Source: Bacillota bacterium | GTDB lineage: Bacteria; Bacillota; Limnochordia; Darwinibacteriales; Darwinibacteriaceae | Reading direction: 5' to 3' | DNA length: 64,000 bases | NCBI GenBank assembly: GCA_012837925.1 | Contig: DUQE01000049.1 | Span: 13,997 to 77,996, forward strand | The notes under the pieces: model-generated | Told to the model about the DNA's origin: nothing | The model's input: only the letters and a program-made list of their open reading frames with translations | Databases searched by the model: none | Program-made: the position numbers and the translations under genes | Shown: piece after piece, positions 58,034 through 64,000 of the stretch | How positions within the stretch are numbered: the first letter of the stretch is position 1 | How the letters are laid out: every line of letters begins with the position of its first letter

Positions 58034-58678
58034 CTATTCACTCCCCTCAATTGGTATCGCCCTATAGACTTCTTCTCCTGCATTCCAGGTAAAGTCATTG
58101 GCAGTTAACTCCTGAACGGTCTGACGTAAAAGTTCCAGCTCATGAGGGAAACACAAAACATGAAAGGTAACGTGCTCTAAGTATTCTGTATCCTCAACAA
58201 AAACACCTTGCGTAAGCAACGTATTTTGAATCTTTCCTACATGAACATAATCCACCGTGAAAGCAACCTTCTGCGATGGCACCATGCGCACGATCCCCGC
58301 CGCCTGCAATGCTTCGCGCACCGCTCCACCGTAGGCGCGAATTAAGCCGCCGCGTCCCAAAAGAGTACCTCCAAAGTACCTCGTGACTACTACGACACAG
58401 TTTACGACCTCGTGGTTCTTGAGAACCTCCAGCATAGGAAGGCCCGCAGTACCACTCGGCTCGTTATCATCACTATATTTCTGCACCTCTTGATTCATAC
58501 CTAGGATGTAGGCAGGGACGTTATGGGTGGCGTTCCAGTGTTCCTTGCGCACCCCTTCGATAAAGGCTTCGGCTTCGTCCTGGGTGTGCACAGGTTTGAT
58601 GCGAGCTATGAACTTGGACTTTTTCTCAACCAGCGTTATCTCCGCTTCTTTGGCGACTGTCCGATACTCAACAAGCAT
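58034..58678 (-). CDS. yigZ: YigZ/IMPACT family protein
   Basis: UPF0029 N-domain motifs (KKSKFIARI...DDNEPSGTAG...VVVTRYFGGTLLGRGGL). Confidence 0.85.
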   Translation of the reverse strand: MLVEYRTVAKEAEITLVEKKSKFIARIKPVHTQDEAEAFIEGVRKEHWNATHNVPAYILGMNQEVQKYSDDNEPSGTAGLPMLEVLKNHEVVNCVVVVTRYFGGTLLGRGGLIRAYGGAVREALQAAGIVRMVPSQKVAFTVDYVHVGKIQNTLLTQGVFVEDTEYLEHVTFHVLCFPHELELLRQTVQELTANDFTWNAGEEVYRAIPIEGSE

Positions 58679-58710
58679 TCTACCACCTCGAGATAGTGTT
58701 CAACATCATT

Positions 58711-58739
58711 TTGCATCTTCCTTCCCTTTCTGCTATTCT
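58711..58739 (+). promoter_or_regulatory. Candidate sigma-A promoter for tex
   Basis: TTGCAT, 17 nt, TATTCT. Confidence 0.4.
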
Positions 58740-58760
58740 AATCTAGTGAGGAGGATGTGC

Positions 58761-60917
58761 ATGGATATCATTAAACAACTGGCCACAGAACTAGGAATCA
58801 GACCGCATCAGGTTGAGCAAACCGCCGCGCTCCTAGATGATGGAAACACGATTCCCTTTATCGCCCGCTATCGCAAAGAGGCCACGGGAGAACTTGACGA
58901 GACTGTCATTCGGGATTTGTCAGAACGCCTTACATACCTGCGAAACCTCGAAGATCGAAAGGCTGAGATCACACGACTGATTGACGCTCAGGAAAAACTC
59001 ACGCCCGAACTCTCAGACTCCATTGTGAAGGCAACTACACTACAAGAACTGGAAGATCTATATCGTCCTTTCCGGCCAAAACGTAGAACCAGGGCATCCA
59101 TCGCCAAAGAAAAGGGTCTCGAACCCTTGGCACTTATGCTCTTAGAACAGGGTCCAGAGCAACCTGAGGAACTGGCTCAAGCCTTTTTGACCGACGAGGT
59201 GGCAACAGTAGAAGAGGCCCTTCAAGGAGCGCAGGATATACTTGCTGAGCAAATTACCGACGATCCGGCCAACCGTGCACTGATCCGCAAGTTCACCTTT
59301 GACACAGGCCTCTTGATGAGCGAAAAAGCAAACAGTGAAGACGAAGCGCAAAGCGCTGAGTTTCAAATGTATTTCGATTACTTTGAGGATGTGGCAAAAA
59401 TACCCCCACATCGCATACTCGCCCTAAACCGTGGTGAACGCTTGAACGCGCTGAAAGTAAGAGTTCAAGTGGATATCGACAAAGTCTATGCTCTGTTGAG
59501 CAAAGAGATAATTACCAACCCAGCGTCCCCCGCGACCCCTTACCTAGTGGCAGCCATTGAAGATGGCTACGCACGCCTCTTAGCCCCAAGCCTCGAGCGG
59601 GACATTCGAGGAGCTCTGACAGAAAAGGCCGAAGAACACGCGATTCAGATCTTTGCTAAGAACTTAGGCGATCTGTTGATGCAAAGTCCGGTAAGGGGCA
59701 AGAGGGTCTTAGGGATTGATCCTGCCTTTCGGACTGGGTGCAAAGTAGTGGCGCTGAGTGAGTTTGGCGATCTCCTGGAGTACACGACGATCTATCCCCA
59801 TGAGCCTCAACGCAGATGGGATCAGGCTCTAGAGATTTTGAGCGCTCTTGTCTCCAAGCATGACCTTGCCCTCGTAACCATTGGGAATGGGACGGCGAGT
59901 CGAGAAACCGAACAACTTGTAGCCGAACTGATCAAAAAGTACAATCCCAAACTTCAGTACCTGGTAGTCAACGAGGCTGGAGCCTCTGTTTACTCCGCAT
60001 CAAAGCTTGCGAAAGAAGAATTTCCTGACTTAGACGTGTCGATAAGGGGAGCGGTCTCCATTGCGCGTCGGGTACAAGATCCCCTGGCGGAGCTGGTAAA
60101 AATTGATCCTAAATCCATTGGAGTGGGGCAGTACCAGCATGACGTGAACCAAAAGGCACTGGCCACTACATTGGAGCATGTAGTAGAGAGCTGCGTGAAC
60201 CATGTTGGCGTCGAGCTCAATACAGCTTCGAGTGCTCTTCTAAGACATGTCTCAGGCCTTTCGGCGAAGGTGGCCGATAACGTTGTGGATTATCGGGCGA
60301 CAAACGGGATCTTTAAGAGGCGCTCTGAGTTAAAGAAGGTCAAGGGTCTTGGTCCCAAGGCCTTTGAGCAGGCCGCGGGCTTTCTGCGTATTGCAGACGG
60401 GTCGCAGCCCCTGGATAACACAGCTGTTCATCCAGAATCCTATCCCTTGGCCGTCCAAATCCTCGAGCAAATCGGTTACAAAGAGAAGGATCTGCAAAAC
60501 CGCGAGACACTAGCCATCATTCGCGAAAGACTAAAAACTCTCGATGCCAAAGAAGTGGCAGAAAGTCTCGAGGCAGGTGAACCTACCGTTCGTGATATCA
60601 TTGGAGCGCTCAGCCAACCAGGGCGAGATCCACGAGATGAGCTGCCCCCACCGCTCTTCAGAGCCGACGTGCTAAGCATGGAGGACCTGCGACCTGGAAT
60701 GGTCTTGCAGGGGACAGTGCAGAATGTCGTAGATTTTGGAGCCTTCGTTGATATAGGAGTCAAGAAGGCTGGTTTGGTCCACATTTCAGAGCTCAGTGAC
60801 AGCTACGTCAGGCATCCCACTGATTGTGTACAAGTCGGTGATATCGTCTCCGTACGTATTCTCGGCGTAGAACCACAACTAGGAAGAATTAGTCTGTCCA
60901 TGAAAAGCGAGCGTTAA
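58761..60917 (+). CDS. tex: Transcription accessory protein Tex (S1 RNA-binding)
   Basis: Tex N-terminal HTH, YqgF-like and HhH domains, C-terminal S1 domain (GMVLQGTVQNVVDFGAFVDIG). ATG 58761 with GAGGAGGA RBS. The ORF-track start is over-extended. Confidence 0.9.
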   Translation: MDIIKQLATELGIRPHQVEQTAALLDDGNTIPFIARYRKEATGELDETVIRDLSERLTYLRNLEDRKAEITRLIDAQEKLTPELSDSIVKATTLQELEDLYRPFRPKRRTRASIAKEKGLEPLALMLLEQGPEQPEELAQAFLTDEVATVEEALQGAQDILAEQITDDPANRALIRKFTFDTGLLMSEKANSEDEAQSAEFQMYFDYFEDVAKIPPHRILALNRGERLNALKVRVQVDIDKVYALLSKEIITNPASPATPYLVAAIEDGYARLLAPSLERDIRGALTEKAEEHAIQIFAKNLGDLLMQSPVRGKRVLGIDPAFRTGCKVVALSEFGDLLEYTTIYPHEPQRRWDQALEILSALVSKHDLALVTIGNGTASRETEQLVAELIKKYNPKLQYLVVNEAGASVYSASKLAKEEFPDLDVSIRGAVSIARRVQDPLAELVKIDPKSIGVGQYQHDVNQKALATTLEHVVESCVNHVGVELNTASSALLRHVSGLSAKVADNVVDYRATNGIFKRRSELKKVKGLGPKAFEQAAGFLRIADGSQPLDNTAVHPESYPLAVQILEQIGYKEKDLQNRETLAIIRERLKTLDAKEVAESLEAGEPTVRDIIGALSQPGRDPRDELPPPLFRADVLSMEDLRPGMVLQGTVQNVVDFGAFVDIGVKKAGLVHISELSDSYVRHPTDCVQVGDIVSVRILGVEPQLGRISLSMKSER

Positions 60918-60920
60918 AAC

Positions 60921-60967
60921 AAAGAGGCTGCTCCAGAACACCATCGTTCTGAAGCAGCCTTTTTTTG
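60921..60967. terminator. Bidirectional rho-independent terminator between tex and nfnB
   Basis: AGGCTGCTcCAGAA...TTCTGaAGCAGCCT followed by TTTTTTT; an A-run on the other side. Confidence 0.6.
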
Positions 60968-60977
60968 ATCAGTCTTC

Positions 60978-62402
60978 TTAGGCGTTGTCTCTCTTGGCAG
61001 TCAACCATTCGTGGATAGCCAGGGCGGCACGTTTGCCTGCACCCATGGCACTGATTACGGTCGAGGCACCTGTGGCGATGTCACCACCGGCCCAAACACC
61101 GGGAATGCTCGTAGCGCCTGCTTCGTCAAAGGTGGCAATATTGCCCCACTTGTTGAGCTCCAAGCCGTCCACTCGTGTGGTCAATAATGGGTTTGCACCC
61201 TGTCCTACTGCGACAACTACGGTATCAACCTCCAGCGTGAACAGAGAACCTGGAATCTCAACCGGTCTTCTGCGACCACTACTGTCGGGTTCGCCCAGTT
61301 CCATCCTCACGCACTCCATGGCCCGAACTCGGAACTTCTCGTCACCAACAATACGGGCTGGGTTCGTAAGCAACTGGAACTTGATTCCTTCCTCTTCGGC
61401 GTTTTCAATCTCCTCGAGGCGGGCAGGCATTTCCTCGCGGCTTCTGCGATACACGATATATACTTCCTCGGCCCCCAGACGCCTTGATACACGGGCTGCG
61501 TCCATGGCCACATTACCGGCTCCAACGACCGCAACACGTTTGCCTACCTTAATGGGCGTATCGTACTCAGGGAAGAGATACGCTTTCATCAAGTTCGCTC
61601 TGGTGAGAAATTCGTTGGCACTGTATACTCCATTGAGGTTCTCTCCAGGGATGTTGAGAAAGTATGGCAAACCCGCACCGGTTCCGATGAAGGCTGCGGC
61701 GTACTTTCCAGAACGCAGCATTTCGTTAAAGTCCATGGTAAGTCCCACAGCGACATTGGTGAACACATTGACGCCCAACGATTTCACATACTCGACTTCT
61801 TCATCGACAATTGATTTTGGCAGACGGAACTCAGGGATTCCGTAACGCAGTACTCCTCCCGTATCGTGAAGGGCTTCGAAGATATCAACCTCATAGCCAT
61901 AACCGGCTAGATCGGCACCGCAGGTTAAGCCGGCGGGTCCCGAACCAATAACGGCAATCCGTTCTGGATATTTCTTCTCAGGCTTGGTCGCTTGAGCCCC
62001 TTCATCCCGGGATTTCTTGGCTGCACTGGCCTGGTCTGCTACAAATCGTTCTAACATGCCAATGGCAATCGGCTGTCCCCGTTTGGCCAAGACACAGACT
62101 GCTTCACATTGTGATTCTTGGGGACAAACTCTTCCGCAAACAGCAGGCAGACTGTTCTTTTCTTTAATCTTGGCATCGGCAGCTTCAAACTCCCCTTGCA
62201 CAACAAGCTGAATAAACTCAGGTATGGGAACCTGGACAGGACATCCACTGACACAAGGCTTGTGTTTACAGTTCAAACAACGCTCAGCCTCAGAGATGGC
62301 CATTTCTGGATCGAGCCCCAAAGCTACCTCTATAAAATCAGAACTGCGTTCCTTAGGATCGCGCCTGGGCATCTCAACTCTGTTTCGTTTTGCTGGTATC
62401 AT
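60978..62402 (-). CDS. nfnB: NADH-dependent reduced ferredoxin:NADP+ oxidoreductase subunit B / glutamate synthase small-subunit-like (GltD family)
   Basis: Two N-terminal [4Fe-4S] Cys clusters, then FAD and NAD(P) Rossmann motifs (VAVIGSGPAGL; VAVVGAGNVAMD). Confidence 0.85.
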   Translation of the reverse strand: MIPAKRNRVEMPRRDPKERSSDFIEVALGLDPEMAISEAERCLNCKHKPCVSGCPVQVPIPEFIQLVVQGEFEAADAKIKEKNSLPAVCGRVCPQESQCEAVCVLAKRGQPIAIGMLERFVADQASAAKKSRDEGAQATKPEKKYPERIAVIGSGPAGLTCGADLAGYGYEVDIFEALHDTGGVLRYGIPEFRLPKSIVDEEVEYVKSLGVNVFTNVAVGLTMDFNEMLRSGKYAAAFIGTGAGLPYFLNIPGENLNGVYSANEFLTRANLMKAYLFPEYDTPIKVGKRVAVVGAGNVAMDAARVSRRLGAEEVYIVYRRSREEMPARLEEIENAEEEGIKFQLLTNPARIVGDEKFRVRAMECVRMELGEPDSSGRRRPVEIPGSLFTLEVDTVVVAVGQGANPLLTTRVDGLELNKWGNIATFDEAGATSIPGVWAGGDIATGASTVISAMGAGKRAALAIHEWLTAKRDNA

Positions 62403-63233
62403 TTATACTCGTTCCTCCCCTAAGGTCCGGCATACGTGATCTTCCTCATCCCTATAGTATCCTTGCCGAACCACCAGTTCGTCAAAGTTCACAGCATGTC
62501 CATCAAAGTCAGGACCATCGACACAGGCAAACTTGGTTTCTCCATTGATGGAAACCCGGCAACCTCCACACATGCCAGTTCCGTCGATCATGATCGAGTT
62601 GAGGCTTACAAGGGTGGGCAGATTAAATTCTTTTGTGACCTTGCTGGCTGCTTGCATCATTCGTGCAGGCCCAATGGCAATGGCCATATCGAAGTGTTCG
62701 CCACTCTCCAAACGTTGGCGAAGCGGATCGGTTACCAGACCCTTCATTCCTTCGCTCCCATCGTCTGTCACCAAAATGACCTCGTCACTCAAGCTCCTCA
62801 CTTCATCTTGCAGAATCAACAGATCCTTAGTGCGAGCCCCTAGAATCGATATAATCTCGGCTCCCTTTTTGCGATAGGCGCGAAGTAGTGGCAGCATCGG
62901 TGCAACACCAATTCCACCCATAACAGCAATGATACGGCCCATATCTTTGATTTCAGTGGCCGTGCCCAGGGGACCAAGAACGTCTTTGACATAATCACCA
63001 ACGGGGATGTTGACAAGATCCCGGGTGCTTTTTCCCACCGCTTGAATAATCAGCGTAAGCGTGCCCCGTTCAGGATCATTATCGCAAATGGTCAGAGGTA
63101 TCCTCTCGCCAACATCTGAGACCCGAACAATAACAAAGTTACCGGCTTTCGCCTTTTCCGCCACGAGGGGTGCTTCGACAACCATTCTATAGATATTTTC
63201 TGCCAATAGGTCTTTTTCAAGTACCTTAAACAA
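62403..63233 (-). CDS. nfnA: NfnA / PyrK-like ferredoxin-NADP+ reductase subunit with [2Fe-2S] cluster
   Basis: FAD-binding barrel, NAD-binding domain (VMGGIGVAPM), C-terminal CGGC...C cluster. TTG 63233 with AGGAGG RBS gives MFKVLEKDLL. Confidence 0.8.
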   Translation of the reverse strand: MFKVLEKDLLAENIYRMVVEAPLVAEKAKAGNFVIVRVSDVGERIPLTICDNDPERGTLTLIIQAVGKSTRDLVNIPVGDYVKDVLGPLGTATEIKDMGRIIAVMGGIGVAPMLPLLRAYRKKGAEIISILGARTKDLLILQDEVRSLSDEVILVTDDGSEGMKGLVTDPLRQRLESGEHFDMAIAIGPARMMQAASKVTKEFNLPTLVSLNSIMIDGTGMCGGCRVSINGETKFACVDGPDFDGHAVNFDELVVRQGYYRDEEDHVCRTLGEERV

Positions 63234-63256
63234 TCCCTCCACCTCCTACTGCTATC

Positions 63257-63286
63257 ATTATATTGTATTTCGATCAGGTACTGCAA
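63257..63286 (-). promoter_or_regulatory. Near-consensus sigma-A promoter for nfnAB
   Basis: Minus strand TTGCAG, 18 nt, TATAAT. Confidence 0.45.
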
Positions 63287-63328
63287 CCCCCATAGGCTTT
63301 TCACCACGACTTGTGGATCTTTGCTCGG

Positions 63329-63361
63329 AAATAAAAGAAATGAGACGGGGTATCCCGCCTC
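63329..63361 (-). terminator. Intrinsic terminator after the rSAM/SPASM gene
   Basis: Minus strand GAGGCGGG-aua-CCCCGUCUC (one mismatch) followed by AUUUCUUUUAUUU. Confidence 0.45.
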
Positions 63362-63392
63362 AAATCACCGAGAAACTCTTATATCTGGCCAG

Positions 63393-64000
63393 TTAAATAC
63401 AACTACAGAGTGGGCTCGTACCCAGATAACTGGTGGAATAGCCCATTTGGGGAAAATGTCTGCGTTCTTTACATTCGCGGCTACAGACATATCTGTGGTT
63501 ACAGAACTTGCACCCCAGGACGCAACGGAAAGTCGTGGCACAAAATCTTCGAGTCCTTTCTGACCTTAGGATGCTCTCGAGGGGCTCGTCCAATAGATTC
63601 CCCAAGCAAAATTCATCGTCGTGCAACATGCGACAAGGAAAAACGCTCCCGGTCGCATCAATACTTACGACCATAGTGCCCGCATCACAGAGCGATCCGT
63701 GGATGGTTCCATGGTTGAGACATGCCAAAGCTTGAAGGTCCTCATCCGTTAAGACGTACTCATCAAGCGGAGGTATGTTGGGATTACCTGTTAGAATGTT
63801 AAACACTACGGGAACACCTAGTTCCTCGGCAAACGCTCTGTAAGCATCAATATGACTCGTGTTCTTGCGATGCAAGGTTGGCACCATGGCCACAGGTATC
63901 CCTACACTTTGAATCTGAAGTATCGCCTTAACTGCGTAACGAGTGGAACCTTTGTCTCGTAAGAAATGTGGACCTCGCGTCTCATAGCCATCGATCCCCA
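63393..64000 (-). CDS. Radical SAM / SPASM-domain protein, C-terminal ~200 aa (partial; N-terminus beyond window)
   Basis: The frame is open to the window edge. SPASM hallmarks: C-x12-G-x4-C (CDAGTMVVSIDATGSVFPC), C-L-G-N-L...L-E-S-I, then CATTFRCVLGCKFC and further Cys (CSREC, CSC). Confidence 0.65.
   Translation of the reverse strand, partial: GIDGYETRGPHFLRDKGSTRYAVKAILQIQSVGIPVAMVPTLHRKNTSHIDAYRAFAEELGVPVVFNILTGNPNIPPLDEYVLTDEDLQALACLNHGTIHGSLCDAGTMVVSIDATGSVFPCRMLHDDEFCLGNLLDEPLESILRSERTRRFCATTFRCVLGCKFCNHRYVCSRECKERRHFPQMGYSTSYLGTSPLCSCI

Follow-up and report, generated by a model that had tools for sequence, protein, structure and literature searches.

What might a peptide-maturase-type radical S-adenosylmethionine (rSAM) enzyme act on when the genes before it encode a small signal-peptide protein and a divergent regulator? 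This question is raised by an rSAM gene that is cut off by the right edge of a 64,000-nt stretch of DNA from a Bacillota bacterium of the Darwinibacteriaceae (Limnochordia; contig DUQE01000049.1, positions 13,997 to 77,996; the whole stretch is called the window hereafter). A preliminary description of the window had proposed the C-terminal half of an rSAM enzyme with a SPASM domain and an unusual Cys-rich extension, and had placed its substrate and partner genes, possibly those for a ribosomally synthesised and post-translationally modified peptide (RiPP), to its right. Here, we report that the gene encodes an rSAM/SPASM enzyme with a canonical SPASM motif, that this enzyme lacks the RiPP recognition element (RRE)-like domain of its relatives, and that its gene follows a predicted pro-peptide gene of an RNPP-type cassette. 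The reading we favour, tentatively and somewhat short of calling it probable, is that of a working, RRE-less maturase under quorum-sensing (QS) control, which would be the single cargo of the cassette and probably modifies the adjacent pro-peptide.

A canonical SPASM enzyme at the window edge

All peptide strings quoted in the preliminary description are present in the minus-strand translation of 63396-63998, a stop-free frame of 201 codons that corresponds to residues 128-328 of a 328-aa protein. The TAA stop occupies 63393-63395, and the final two bases of the window (63999-64000) belong to codon 127. What lies in the window is the C-terminal ~60% of the protein, and its assignment as an rSAM/SPASM enzyme of the peptide-maturase type was upheld; codons 1-127, including the CxxxCxxC motif, fall beyond the edge. 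The missing part could be read from P0001, the closest database relative (328 aa, 99% identity, from a 3.2-kb Logan contig; there was no other close one), which carries the CxxxCxxC motif anticipated to the right of the window (CNLNCIGC, residues 33-40) and the SAM-binding GGE motif (SGGEP, residues 76-80), both outside the window. P0001 is annotated with Pfam Radical_SAM and Fer4_12 and is a member of the radical SAM superfamily (PF04055). Besides, exact look-ups of neighbouring window proteins retrieved 16 further strain contigs from digester and fermentation metagenomes, all colinear with the window at 99.3-99.96% identity. Contigs L007 and L013 were used as the continuation of the window (L and P numbers denote loci and proteins throughout): window 58672-64000 is 99.85% identical to L007 11525-6197, with window position 64000 corresponding to L007 6197. 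A first word-index search with the enzyme returned the same protein only, a scan of genome contigs for close relatives gave a single match (26% identity, Bacteroidales), and a scan of metagenome contigs gave none; the enzyme appears, from these sequence searches, to be confined to one species-level population.

The C-terminal domain scored above the cut-offs of Pfam SPASM (PF13186; E 3.9e-8, 33.9 bits vs 21.5) and TIGR04085 (E 5.4e-10, 39.6 bits vs 27), in line with the earlier proposal that its Cys pattern aligns to SPASM models. We built two alignments, A1 with 20 sequences (19 relatives) and A2 with 92 (91 relatives), in both of which ten Cys are invariant, namely C33, C37 and C40 of the rSAM cluster as well as C231, C249, C290, C293, C299, C303 and C325. 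The last seven form the canonical SPASM pattern, Cx12Gx4C...Cx2Cx5Cx3C...C, i.e. a full SPASM domain and not the shorter twitch form; the non-conserved Cys of the enzyme are C217, C259, C280, C286 and C327. The alleged additional Cys-rich tail (CSRECKERR...PLCSCI) adds nothing to this motif, as it holds C299, C303 and C325 of the motif itself, and the string CATTFRCVLGCKFC singled out earlier mixes the non-conserved C280 and C286 with motif residues C290 and C293. The C-terminus is even shorter than that of the relatives, ending three residues past the last motif Cys where they have ~20-25 residues more.

Family placement and loss of the RRE-like domain

An exhaustive HMMER search yielded 129 cluster representatives at E<=1e-30, with a best identity of 45% and E 7e-74 to P0002. 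By similarity of its core and SPASM domain, the enzyme belongs to a CteB-like clade without a name (P0002-P0257), which comprises its nearest relatives (36-45% identity). The clade profile matches CteB (5wgg, E 1e-35) over its full length, including the CteB N-terminal domain, and an AlphaFold2 (AF2) model of the enzyme (pLDDT 85.8) has fold matches to anSME (TMq 0.73-0.76), CteB, SuiB and SkfB. Neither the enzyme nor seven relatives reached any NCBIfam equivalog cut-off. For the enzyme, the scores were 55.5 bits for anSME (TIGR03942; cut-off 349), 97 for MftC (TIGR03962; 265), 89 for NirJ (515), 82 for AhbD (500), 61 for MoaA (284) and 53 for the rSAM-with-lipoprotein family (TIGR04133; 425); PqqE was not among the top 25 families scored, and no mft genes were found in the L007/L013 neighbourhood.

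At the three relatives' loci that we examined (L004, L006, L024), the enzyme gene lies near short, Lys-rich two-Cys peptides that share the motif C[IV]x[IVA]Gx3-5Cxx[VI]G and frequently occur as tandem copies; a CPBP protease is present in each locus. L004 and L006 also hold ATP-binding cassette (ABC) transporter genes and agr-type or two-component regulators, and the short contig L024 shows no transporter. The peptides (33-42 aa) had no NCBIfam match and constitute a precursor family that is newly defined here and unnamed in curated libraries; L004 has three identical tandem precursor genes and L024 three paralogues. Searches by regular expression and hidden Markov model (HMM) detected no precursor of this type in the window or L007, and the clade's ABC transporter and CPBP protease are likewise absent from the window and L007/L013.

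The relatives measure 400-425 aa, and their residue ~85 aligns to residue 24 of the enzyme, leaving a ~64-column gap in A1. What is missing there is the clade's N-terminal RRE-like domain (~85 residues, consensus GNxxNGxxIGLxxxG): its profile gave no match when all frames of L007 and the window were scanned, the control loci scoring E 1e-20. We rejected a frameshifted or stand-alone RRE, as the profile was silent both upstream and throughout the window. The first ~27 residues of the relatives remain recognisable in residues 1-24 of the enzyme (8.6 bits vs a best of 6.8 in 1000 shuffles), which is modest evidence of an in-frame deletion inside the gene, as opposed to a newly acquired start codon. 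Judging from the alignment, some 64 residues of the N-terminal peptide-recognition domain were apparently lost in this manner. Two short relatives considered as natural RRE-less analogues were both artefacts: P0091 (L023 5821-7044) had been given a wrong start codon, its true open reading frame (ORF) comprising 407 aa with the domain, and in P0090 (L024 916-2216) a frameshift separates the N-terminal domain from the core.

An RNPP-type cassette precedes the enzyme gene

The preliminary description rightly placed the partner genes beyond the right edge of the window, yet these are not those of the expected RiPP cluster with precursor, transporter and peptidase. In the near-identical contigs, the enzyme gene is preceded only by a 54-aa signal-peptide ORF and a divergent regulator, followed by potABCD, and no transporter, peptidase or second small precursor ORF occurs between the regulator and nfnA in L007/L013. 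The N-terminal helix-turn-helix (HTH) domain of the regulator matches HTH_31 and HTH_3. The top PDB fold match of its AF2 model (pLDDT 88) is PlcR:PapR7:DNA (3u3w, E 1.9e-7), the next are ComR, Rgg2, Rgg144 and PrgX, and all of the top 44 are peptide-pheromone receptors of the RNPP family; the TM-scores (0.45-0.56) are moderate, as expected for two-domain proteins. With its N-terminal HTH and C-terminal helical-repeat domain, the predicted structure is that of an RNPP (PlcR/Rgg) receptor.

The 54-aa ORF (MKKKSFALTMVLVILMFALPIGCSA/GPDDIPLPPCTGMSVPAPGDVVPFPYVTM) has a good ribosome-binding site (RBS), a KKK n-region, a 15-residue hydrophobic stretch and a CSA/G site, together a predicted Sec-type signal, downstream of which follow AGPDDIPLPP and a 20-residue Pro-rich tail with Cys35. 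A lipoprotein reading of this ORF was rejected: LPIGC has Pro at -3, a non-canonical lipobox, and the enzyme falls outside TIGR04133. Homologues of the regulator (30-60% identity) occur in Bacillota metagenome bins and Alkaliphilus, and in 15 distinct cassettes they are divergently paired with a small signal-peptide ORF of one common plan, in which a Lys-rich start is followed by a hydrophobic stretch, then by an AxA-like site and [DE]D[IV]Px[ILMV][LFY]. An HMM made from ten other pro-peptides gave the 54-aa ORF 21.9 bits, compared with a best of 7.4 in 500 shuffles. By this profile match, the ORF is a predicted member of a conserved [DE]D[IV]P pro-peptide family and provides the adjacent pro-peptide of an RNPP cassette. 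The motif is repeated in tandem in two lineages: L030/L031 have five HEPDIPNIL-type units and L032 has ~17. A conserved box, AAAAtaCGACtTTtaTTCgGGGTG, precedes the pro-peptide genes ~20 nt upstream of a TGnTAnnnT-type -10-like element, the position expected for an activator site, and is a candidate binding site of the receptor; the 64-kb window contains no further copies of it. The genes downstream vary among the cassettes and include those for MerR-like, MCP-like and TIM-barrel proteins. This RNPP subfamily, with its [DE]D[IV]P pro-peptide (including the tandem versions) and promoter box, is newly defined and unnamed in curated libraries.

The pro-peptide and maturase genes share the same strand, with no sense-strand terminator in the spacer between them, and the arrangement of cassette and rSAM gene recurs in each of the 12 contigs spanning the locus. 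In two other lineages (L029-L031; L032), the same slot behind homologous pro-peptide genes is taken by an rSAM maturase of TIGR04115 (474 bits vs a cut-off of 350), which is 21% identical to the present enzyme and likewise without RRE. Peptide-maturase rSAM genes were therefore recruited to this slot at least twice. In L029, no CXXX-repeat or other precursor ORF lies beyond the rSAM gene, the next gene being asnS; in L032, the TIGR04115 enzyme looks degenerate (GGE changed to GRE, one motif Cys lost). Each strain locus has, once, a perfect 17-bp palindrome (ATTGGCATAATGCCAAT) between the pro-peptide and rSAM genes, which overlaps an extended -10-like element (TGGCATAAT; TGnCATAAT) and, as far as such motifs tell, could serve as an operator or as a further promoter. 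In the equivalent place, L029 shows a different palindrome, ATACCA-N6-TGGTAT, overlapping TGGTATAAT.

Strain variation and selection on the enzyme

Among 13-17 near-identical contigs, 19 sites vary within the 363 nt of codons 204-324 of the rSAM gene, as opposed to none in codons 1-203. Eleven are synonymous and eight non-synonymous (in seven codons), giving eight protein alleles in a mosaic. The ratio of non-synonymous to synonymous polymorphism (pN/pS, Nei-Gojobori) amounts to 0.15-0.21 across codons 204-328, where pS reaches 0.136. Moreover, the ORF is undisrupted in 13 strain contigs, with neither frameshift nor premature stop, and all ten cluster Cys and the GGE motif are kept. Low pN/pS, intact alleles and retained Cys together argue for purifying selection on the rSAM gene and against a pseudogene. 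Within the ~20-kb neighbourhood, no stretch is more polymorphic than the last third of the gene, the first two-thirds and the pot genes being invariant. Five independent contigs terminate within or just past this segment (L013 4990-5289), where strain micro-diversity probably breaks assemblies.

Coordinates and flanking genes

The features of the locus are collected in Table 1. Consistent with the proposal that the rSAM gene is the 3'-terminal gene of its unit, it is the last gene before a terminator-like hairpin and the nfnAB-like genes. The hairpin begins 31 nt past the stop codon, has a 9-bp stem with six G-C pairs and a T tract, and recurs at the same site in L007. The nfnA-like gene is preceded by a perfect TATAAT. 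The nfnAB-like pair encodes a 279-aa NAD_binding/DHODB_Fe-S protein and a 474-aa GltD-like protein, the latter named 'NADPH-dependent glutamate synthase' in GenBank and given different starts by different gene callers (464 or 474 aa). On the other side, the three-gene module is bounded by a potABCD-like polyamine ABC importer, whose PotA (396 bits) and PotD (205 bits) both score below their equivalog cut-offs. Horizontal transfer was considered on the basis of base composition and rejected, as the module shows no anomaly (46-49% GC vs 45-53% in the flanks).

Table 1. Position of the features discussed, in window coordinates or, where a locus is named, in those of that contig.
Feature	Position	Strand	Remarks
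rSAM/SPASM gene, 3' part	63393..64000	(-)	Translation; 99% identical full-length P0001
Canonical seven-Cys SPASM motif	63405..63689	(-)	Pfam/TIGRFAM matches; invariant columns in A1 and A2
SPASM Cys codons	C231 63687-63689; C249 63633-63635; C290 63510-63512; C293 63501-63503; C299 63483-63485; C303 63471-63473; C325 63405-63407	(-)	
Strain-polymorphic segment, codons 204-324	63408..63770 (L013 4911-5271)	(-)	13-17 near-identical contigs
Terminator-like hairpin	63331..63362 (hairpin proper 63362-63341)	(-)	TGAGGCGGGATACCCCGTCTCA then TTTCTTTTAT; consensus match only
TATAAT before nfnA-like gene	63262-63257		Perfect match
nfnAB-like pair	60978-63242	(-)	
Order beyond rSAM gene			Terminator-like hairpin, nfnA-like gene, nfnB-like gene, tex (opposite strand)
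potA, potB, potC, potD	L007 593-4399	+	Beyond right window edge
315-aa XRE-HTH regulator	L007 4455-5402	-	
Candidate receptor box AAAAtaCGACtTTtaTTCgGGGTG	L007 5418-5439		Between regulator and pro-peptide genes; aligned in L028, L029, L032, L033, L034, L044, L045, L049
54-aa pro-peptide ORF	L007 5488-5652	+	RBS AAGGGGGTG
Spacer, pro-peptide ORF to rSAM gene			165 nt
17-bp palindrome ATTGGCATAATGCCAAT	L007 5675-5691		
rSAM gene	L007 5818-6804	Same as 54-aa ORF	RBS GAAGGAG
Tandem-repeat pro-peptide genes	L030 and L031 4668-4880; L032 4394-4903	(-)	L032: 169 aa
Precursor genes of the CteB-like clade	L004 12991-13388; L006 6192-6338; L024 316-863		

What the enzyme may act on

How could these genes work together? 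By descent, the enzyme would come from the CteB-like RiPP maturase clade, with loss of the RRE-like domain and of all usual cluster partners. As for the regulation, substrate and chemistry of the system, we infer the following course. Re-imported peptide would load the receptor, which would bind the conserved box ahead of the pro-peptide gene and drive transcription of that gene, with read-through into the maturase gene. The RRE-less maturase might then take the neighbouring pro-peptide as its direct substrate while this is still in the cytoplasm, prior to Sec export, in which case no dedicated exporter would be needed. The likeliest chemistry for the clade would be a radical cross-link, thioether or other, placed within the C-terminal tail of the pro-peptide, a proposal based on the CteB-like ancestry and on Cys35 in that tail. 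A substrate next door would account for the absent RRE, precursor and exporter as well as for the parallel TIGR04115 case. If the enzyme does modify the pro-peptide, the locus would show a RiPP-type enzyme recognising its substrate independently of a leader. A bolder proposal, which we consider possible but doubtful, is that the modified peptide is the QS signal itself, that is, RiPP and pheromone in one. The Sec-exported PapR-like pro-peptide would have its signal sequence in place of the leader and Sec in place of an exporter, without need of an RRE, and evolution would have reached this solution twice, with unrelated rSAM families (P0001-type and TIGR04115-type). Such a peptide would, to our knowledge, be the first rSAM-modified RNPP pheromone.

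Several observations weigh against modification of the adjacent pro-peptide by a working enzyme. About 12 of the 15 cassettes are without an rSAM gene, so the pro-peptide seems to work without modification. Its Cys content is uncorrelated with the presence of rSAM genes, as the pro-peptides of L029-L032 have zero Cys, while those of L033/L034 have one Cys in the absence of an rSAM gene. The 54-aa ORF is unlike the two-Cys precursors of the enzyme's clade (-3.8 bits, rank 414/501), and the strains are near-identical, so the small ORF offers no informative variation of its own. In the QS-linked rSAM loci known to us (streptococcal Rgg/SHP RaS-RiPP operons), the precursor is separate from the pheromone. 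The TGnCATAAT element within the palindrome could be an independent promoter of the maturase gene. Finally, the enzyme deviates from its relatives at ~8 of 29 nearly invariant non-Cys positions (e.g. H250R, and GGG300-302 changed to S(R/L)E), substitutions that could mean a changed or weakened function.

The principal competing explanation draws on several of these same points. The maturase could be QS-regulated cargo with a distant substrate encoded elsewhere, and the pro-peptide a signal only, like streptococcal SHP. This would fit the scarcity of rSAM genes among the cassettes and the lack of covariation with Cys, the membership of the pro-peptide in a signalling family rather than in the precursor family of the enzyme's clade, and the varying downstream genes, as for interchangeable cargo; besides, RRNPP systems beside RiPP clusters are common, with 196 such clusters described (PMC10075063). 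However, neither the 64-kb window nor the ~6 kb of contig sequence examined beyond its right edge yielded another candidate substrate, the RRE for recognising a classical leader peptide is gone, and a second, unrelated maturase family occurs in the same precursor-less arrangement. We take a distant substrate to be a real but rather doubtful alternative. The promoter-like element between the genes bears on a further explanation, namely that the maturase has its own promoter (TGnCATAAT in ATTGGCATAATGCCAAT) and merely happens to neighbour the cassette, with no functional tie to it. The extended -10-like element and the perfect palindrome speak for such a coincidence, yet the arrangement is conserved in every spanning contig and two independent maturase recruitments to one slot would hardly occur by chance, which makes it unlikely in our view.

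The departures of the enzyme from its clade could, alternatively, mark a decaying, functionless relic of a lost RiPP cluster. Around 64 residues, all clade partners and the C-terminal helix have gone, conserved SPASM glycines and other nearly invariant residues are replaced, the gene holds the most polymorphic segment of the neighbourhood, and the parallel TIGR04115 copy in L032 looks degenerate. Nevertheless, decay is at odds with the low pN/pS at an appreciable pS, with the intact ORF and the kept cluster Cys and GGE motif in 13 strain contigs, as well as with the good RBS and the confidently predicted fold, and we judge a relic to be improbable. Least of all do we expect a housekeeping rSAM/SPASM enzyme (anSME, MftC, PqqE, NirJ/AhbD, MoaA or HemW-like), which the preliminary description had named as the outcome that would overturn its proposal. 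While the lack of an RRE and the best structural match, to anSME, would suit this idea, the scores of all tested equivalog models (anSME, MftC, NirJ, AhbD, MoaA) remain far below their cut-offs, and the nearest sequence relatives are located in bacteriocin-like clusters; the housekeeping reading therefore fails, and we grant it hardly any chance.

Comparison with known systems

With anSME (PDB 4K37), its best structural match, the enzyme shares an RRE-less domain layout and a similar length, but the two are only 15-16% identical, the TIGR03942 score is below its cut-off and there is no sulfatase gene in the neighbourhood. The thermocellin thioether-forming maturase CteB (PDB 5WGG) is among the top fold matches as well and has the same rSAM core and full seven-Cys SPASM domain. 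The enzyme differs from the CteB-like clade in lacking ~64 RRE-like residues and the C-terminal helix, in several nearly invariant residues, and in having no two-Cys precursors, ABC transporter or CPBP protease nearby. In the SPASM part of our alignments, the seven Cys alone are invariant, with no conserved eighth ligand; similarly, auxiliary cluster I of CteB is left with an open coordination site. The TIGR04115 CXXX-repeat-target maturases of L029-L032 resemble the enzyme in slot and strand, in lacking an RRE and, in L029, in having no other precursor, whereas they represent a separate rSAM subfamily (21% identity) whose neighbouring peptides are Cys-free.

On the side of the cassette, PlcR/PapR of the Bacillus cereus group provides the top fold match of the regulator, and in both systems the pro-peptide has a signal sequence. 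The core D-[IV]-P-x-[IL]-[LFY] found here resembles that of PapR, D-L-P-F-E-F. Unlike in PlcR/PapR, the motif lies directly behind the signal peptide and not at the C-terminus, some homologues have five or ~17 tandem copies of it, the two genes are divergent rather than tandem, and an rSAM gene follows downstream.

The closest functional analogue is to be seen in the streptococcal Rgg/SHP RaS-RiPP operons (streptide, tryglysin; PMC9389541, PMC8092268), in which an RNPP-type receptor gene is divergent to a small pheromone gene followed by an rSAM/SPASM maturase. The present locus differs in its predicted Sec-type signal sequence, its RRE-less enzyme and the lack of a dedicated second precursor and of an exporter beside the rSAM gene. 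The streptococcal pheromone, in turn, is leaderless and exported by PptAB, with a separate precursor and exporter present. RNPP systems beside RiPP clusters are already documented, none of the 196 neighbour clusters in the RRNPP_detector study being from Limnochordia (PMC10075063), and taken alone the gene adds another member to the uncharacterised rSAM/SPASM maturases. What appears to be novel, as far as the sequences allow us to judge, is the combination of four traits: the pro-peptide is PapR-like with a Sec-type signal, the enzyme lacks an RRE, and there is neither a separate precursor nor an exporter. Compared with these known systems, RNPP receptor, Sec-type pro-peptide and RRE-less maturase would make up a small, testable three-gene system.

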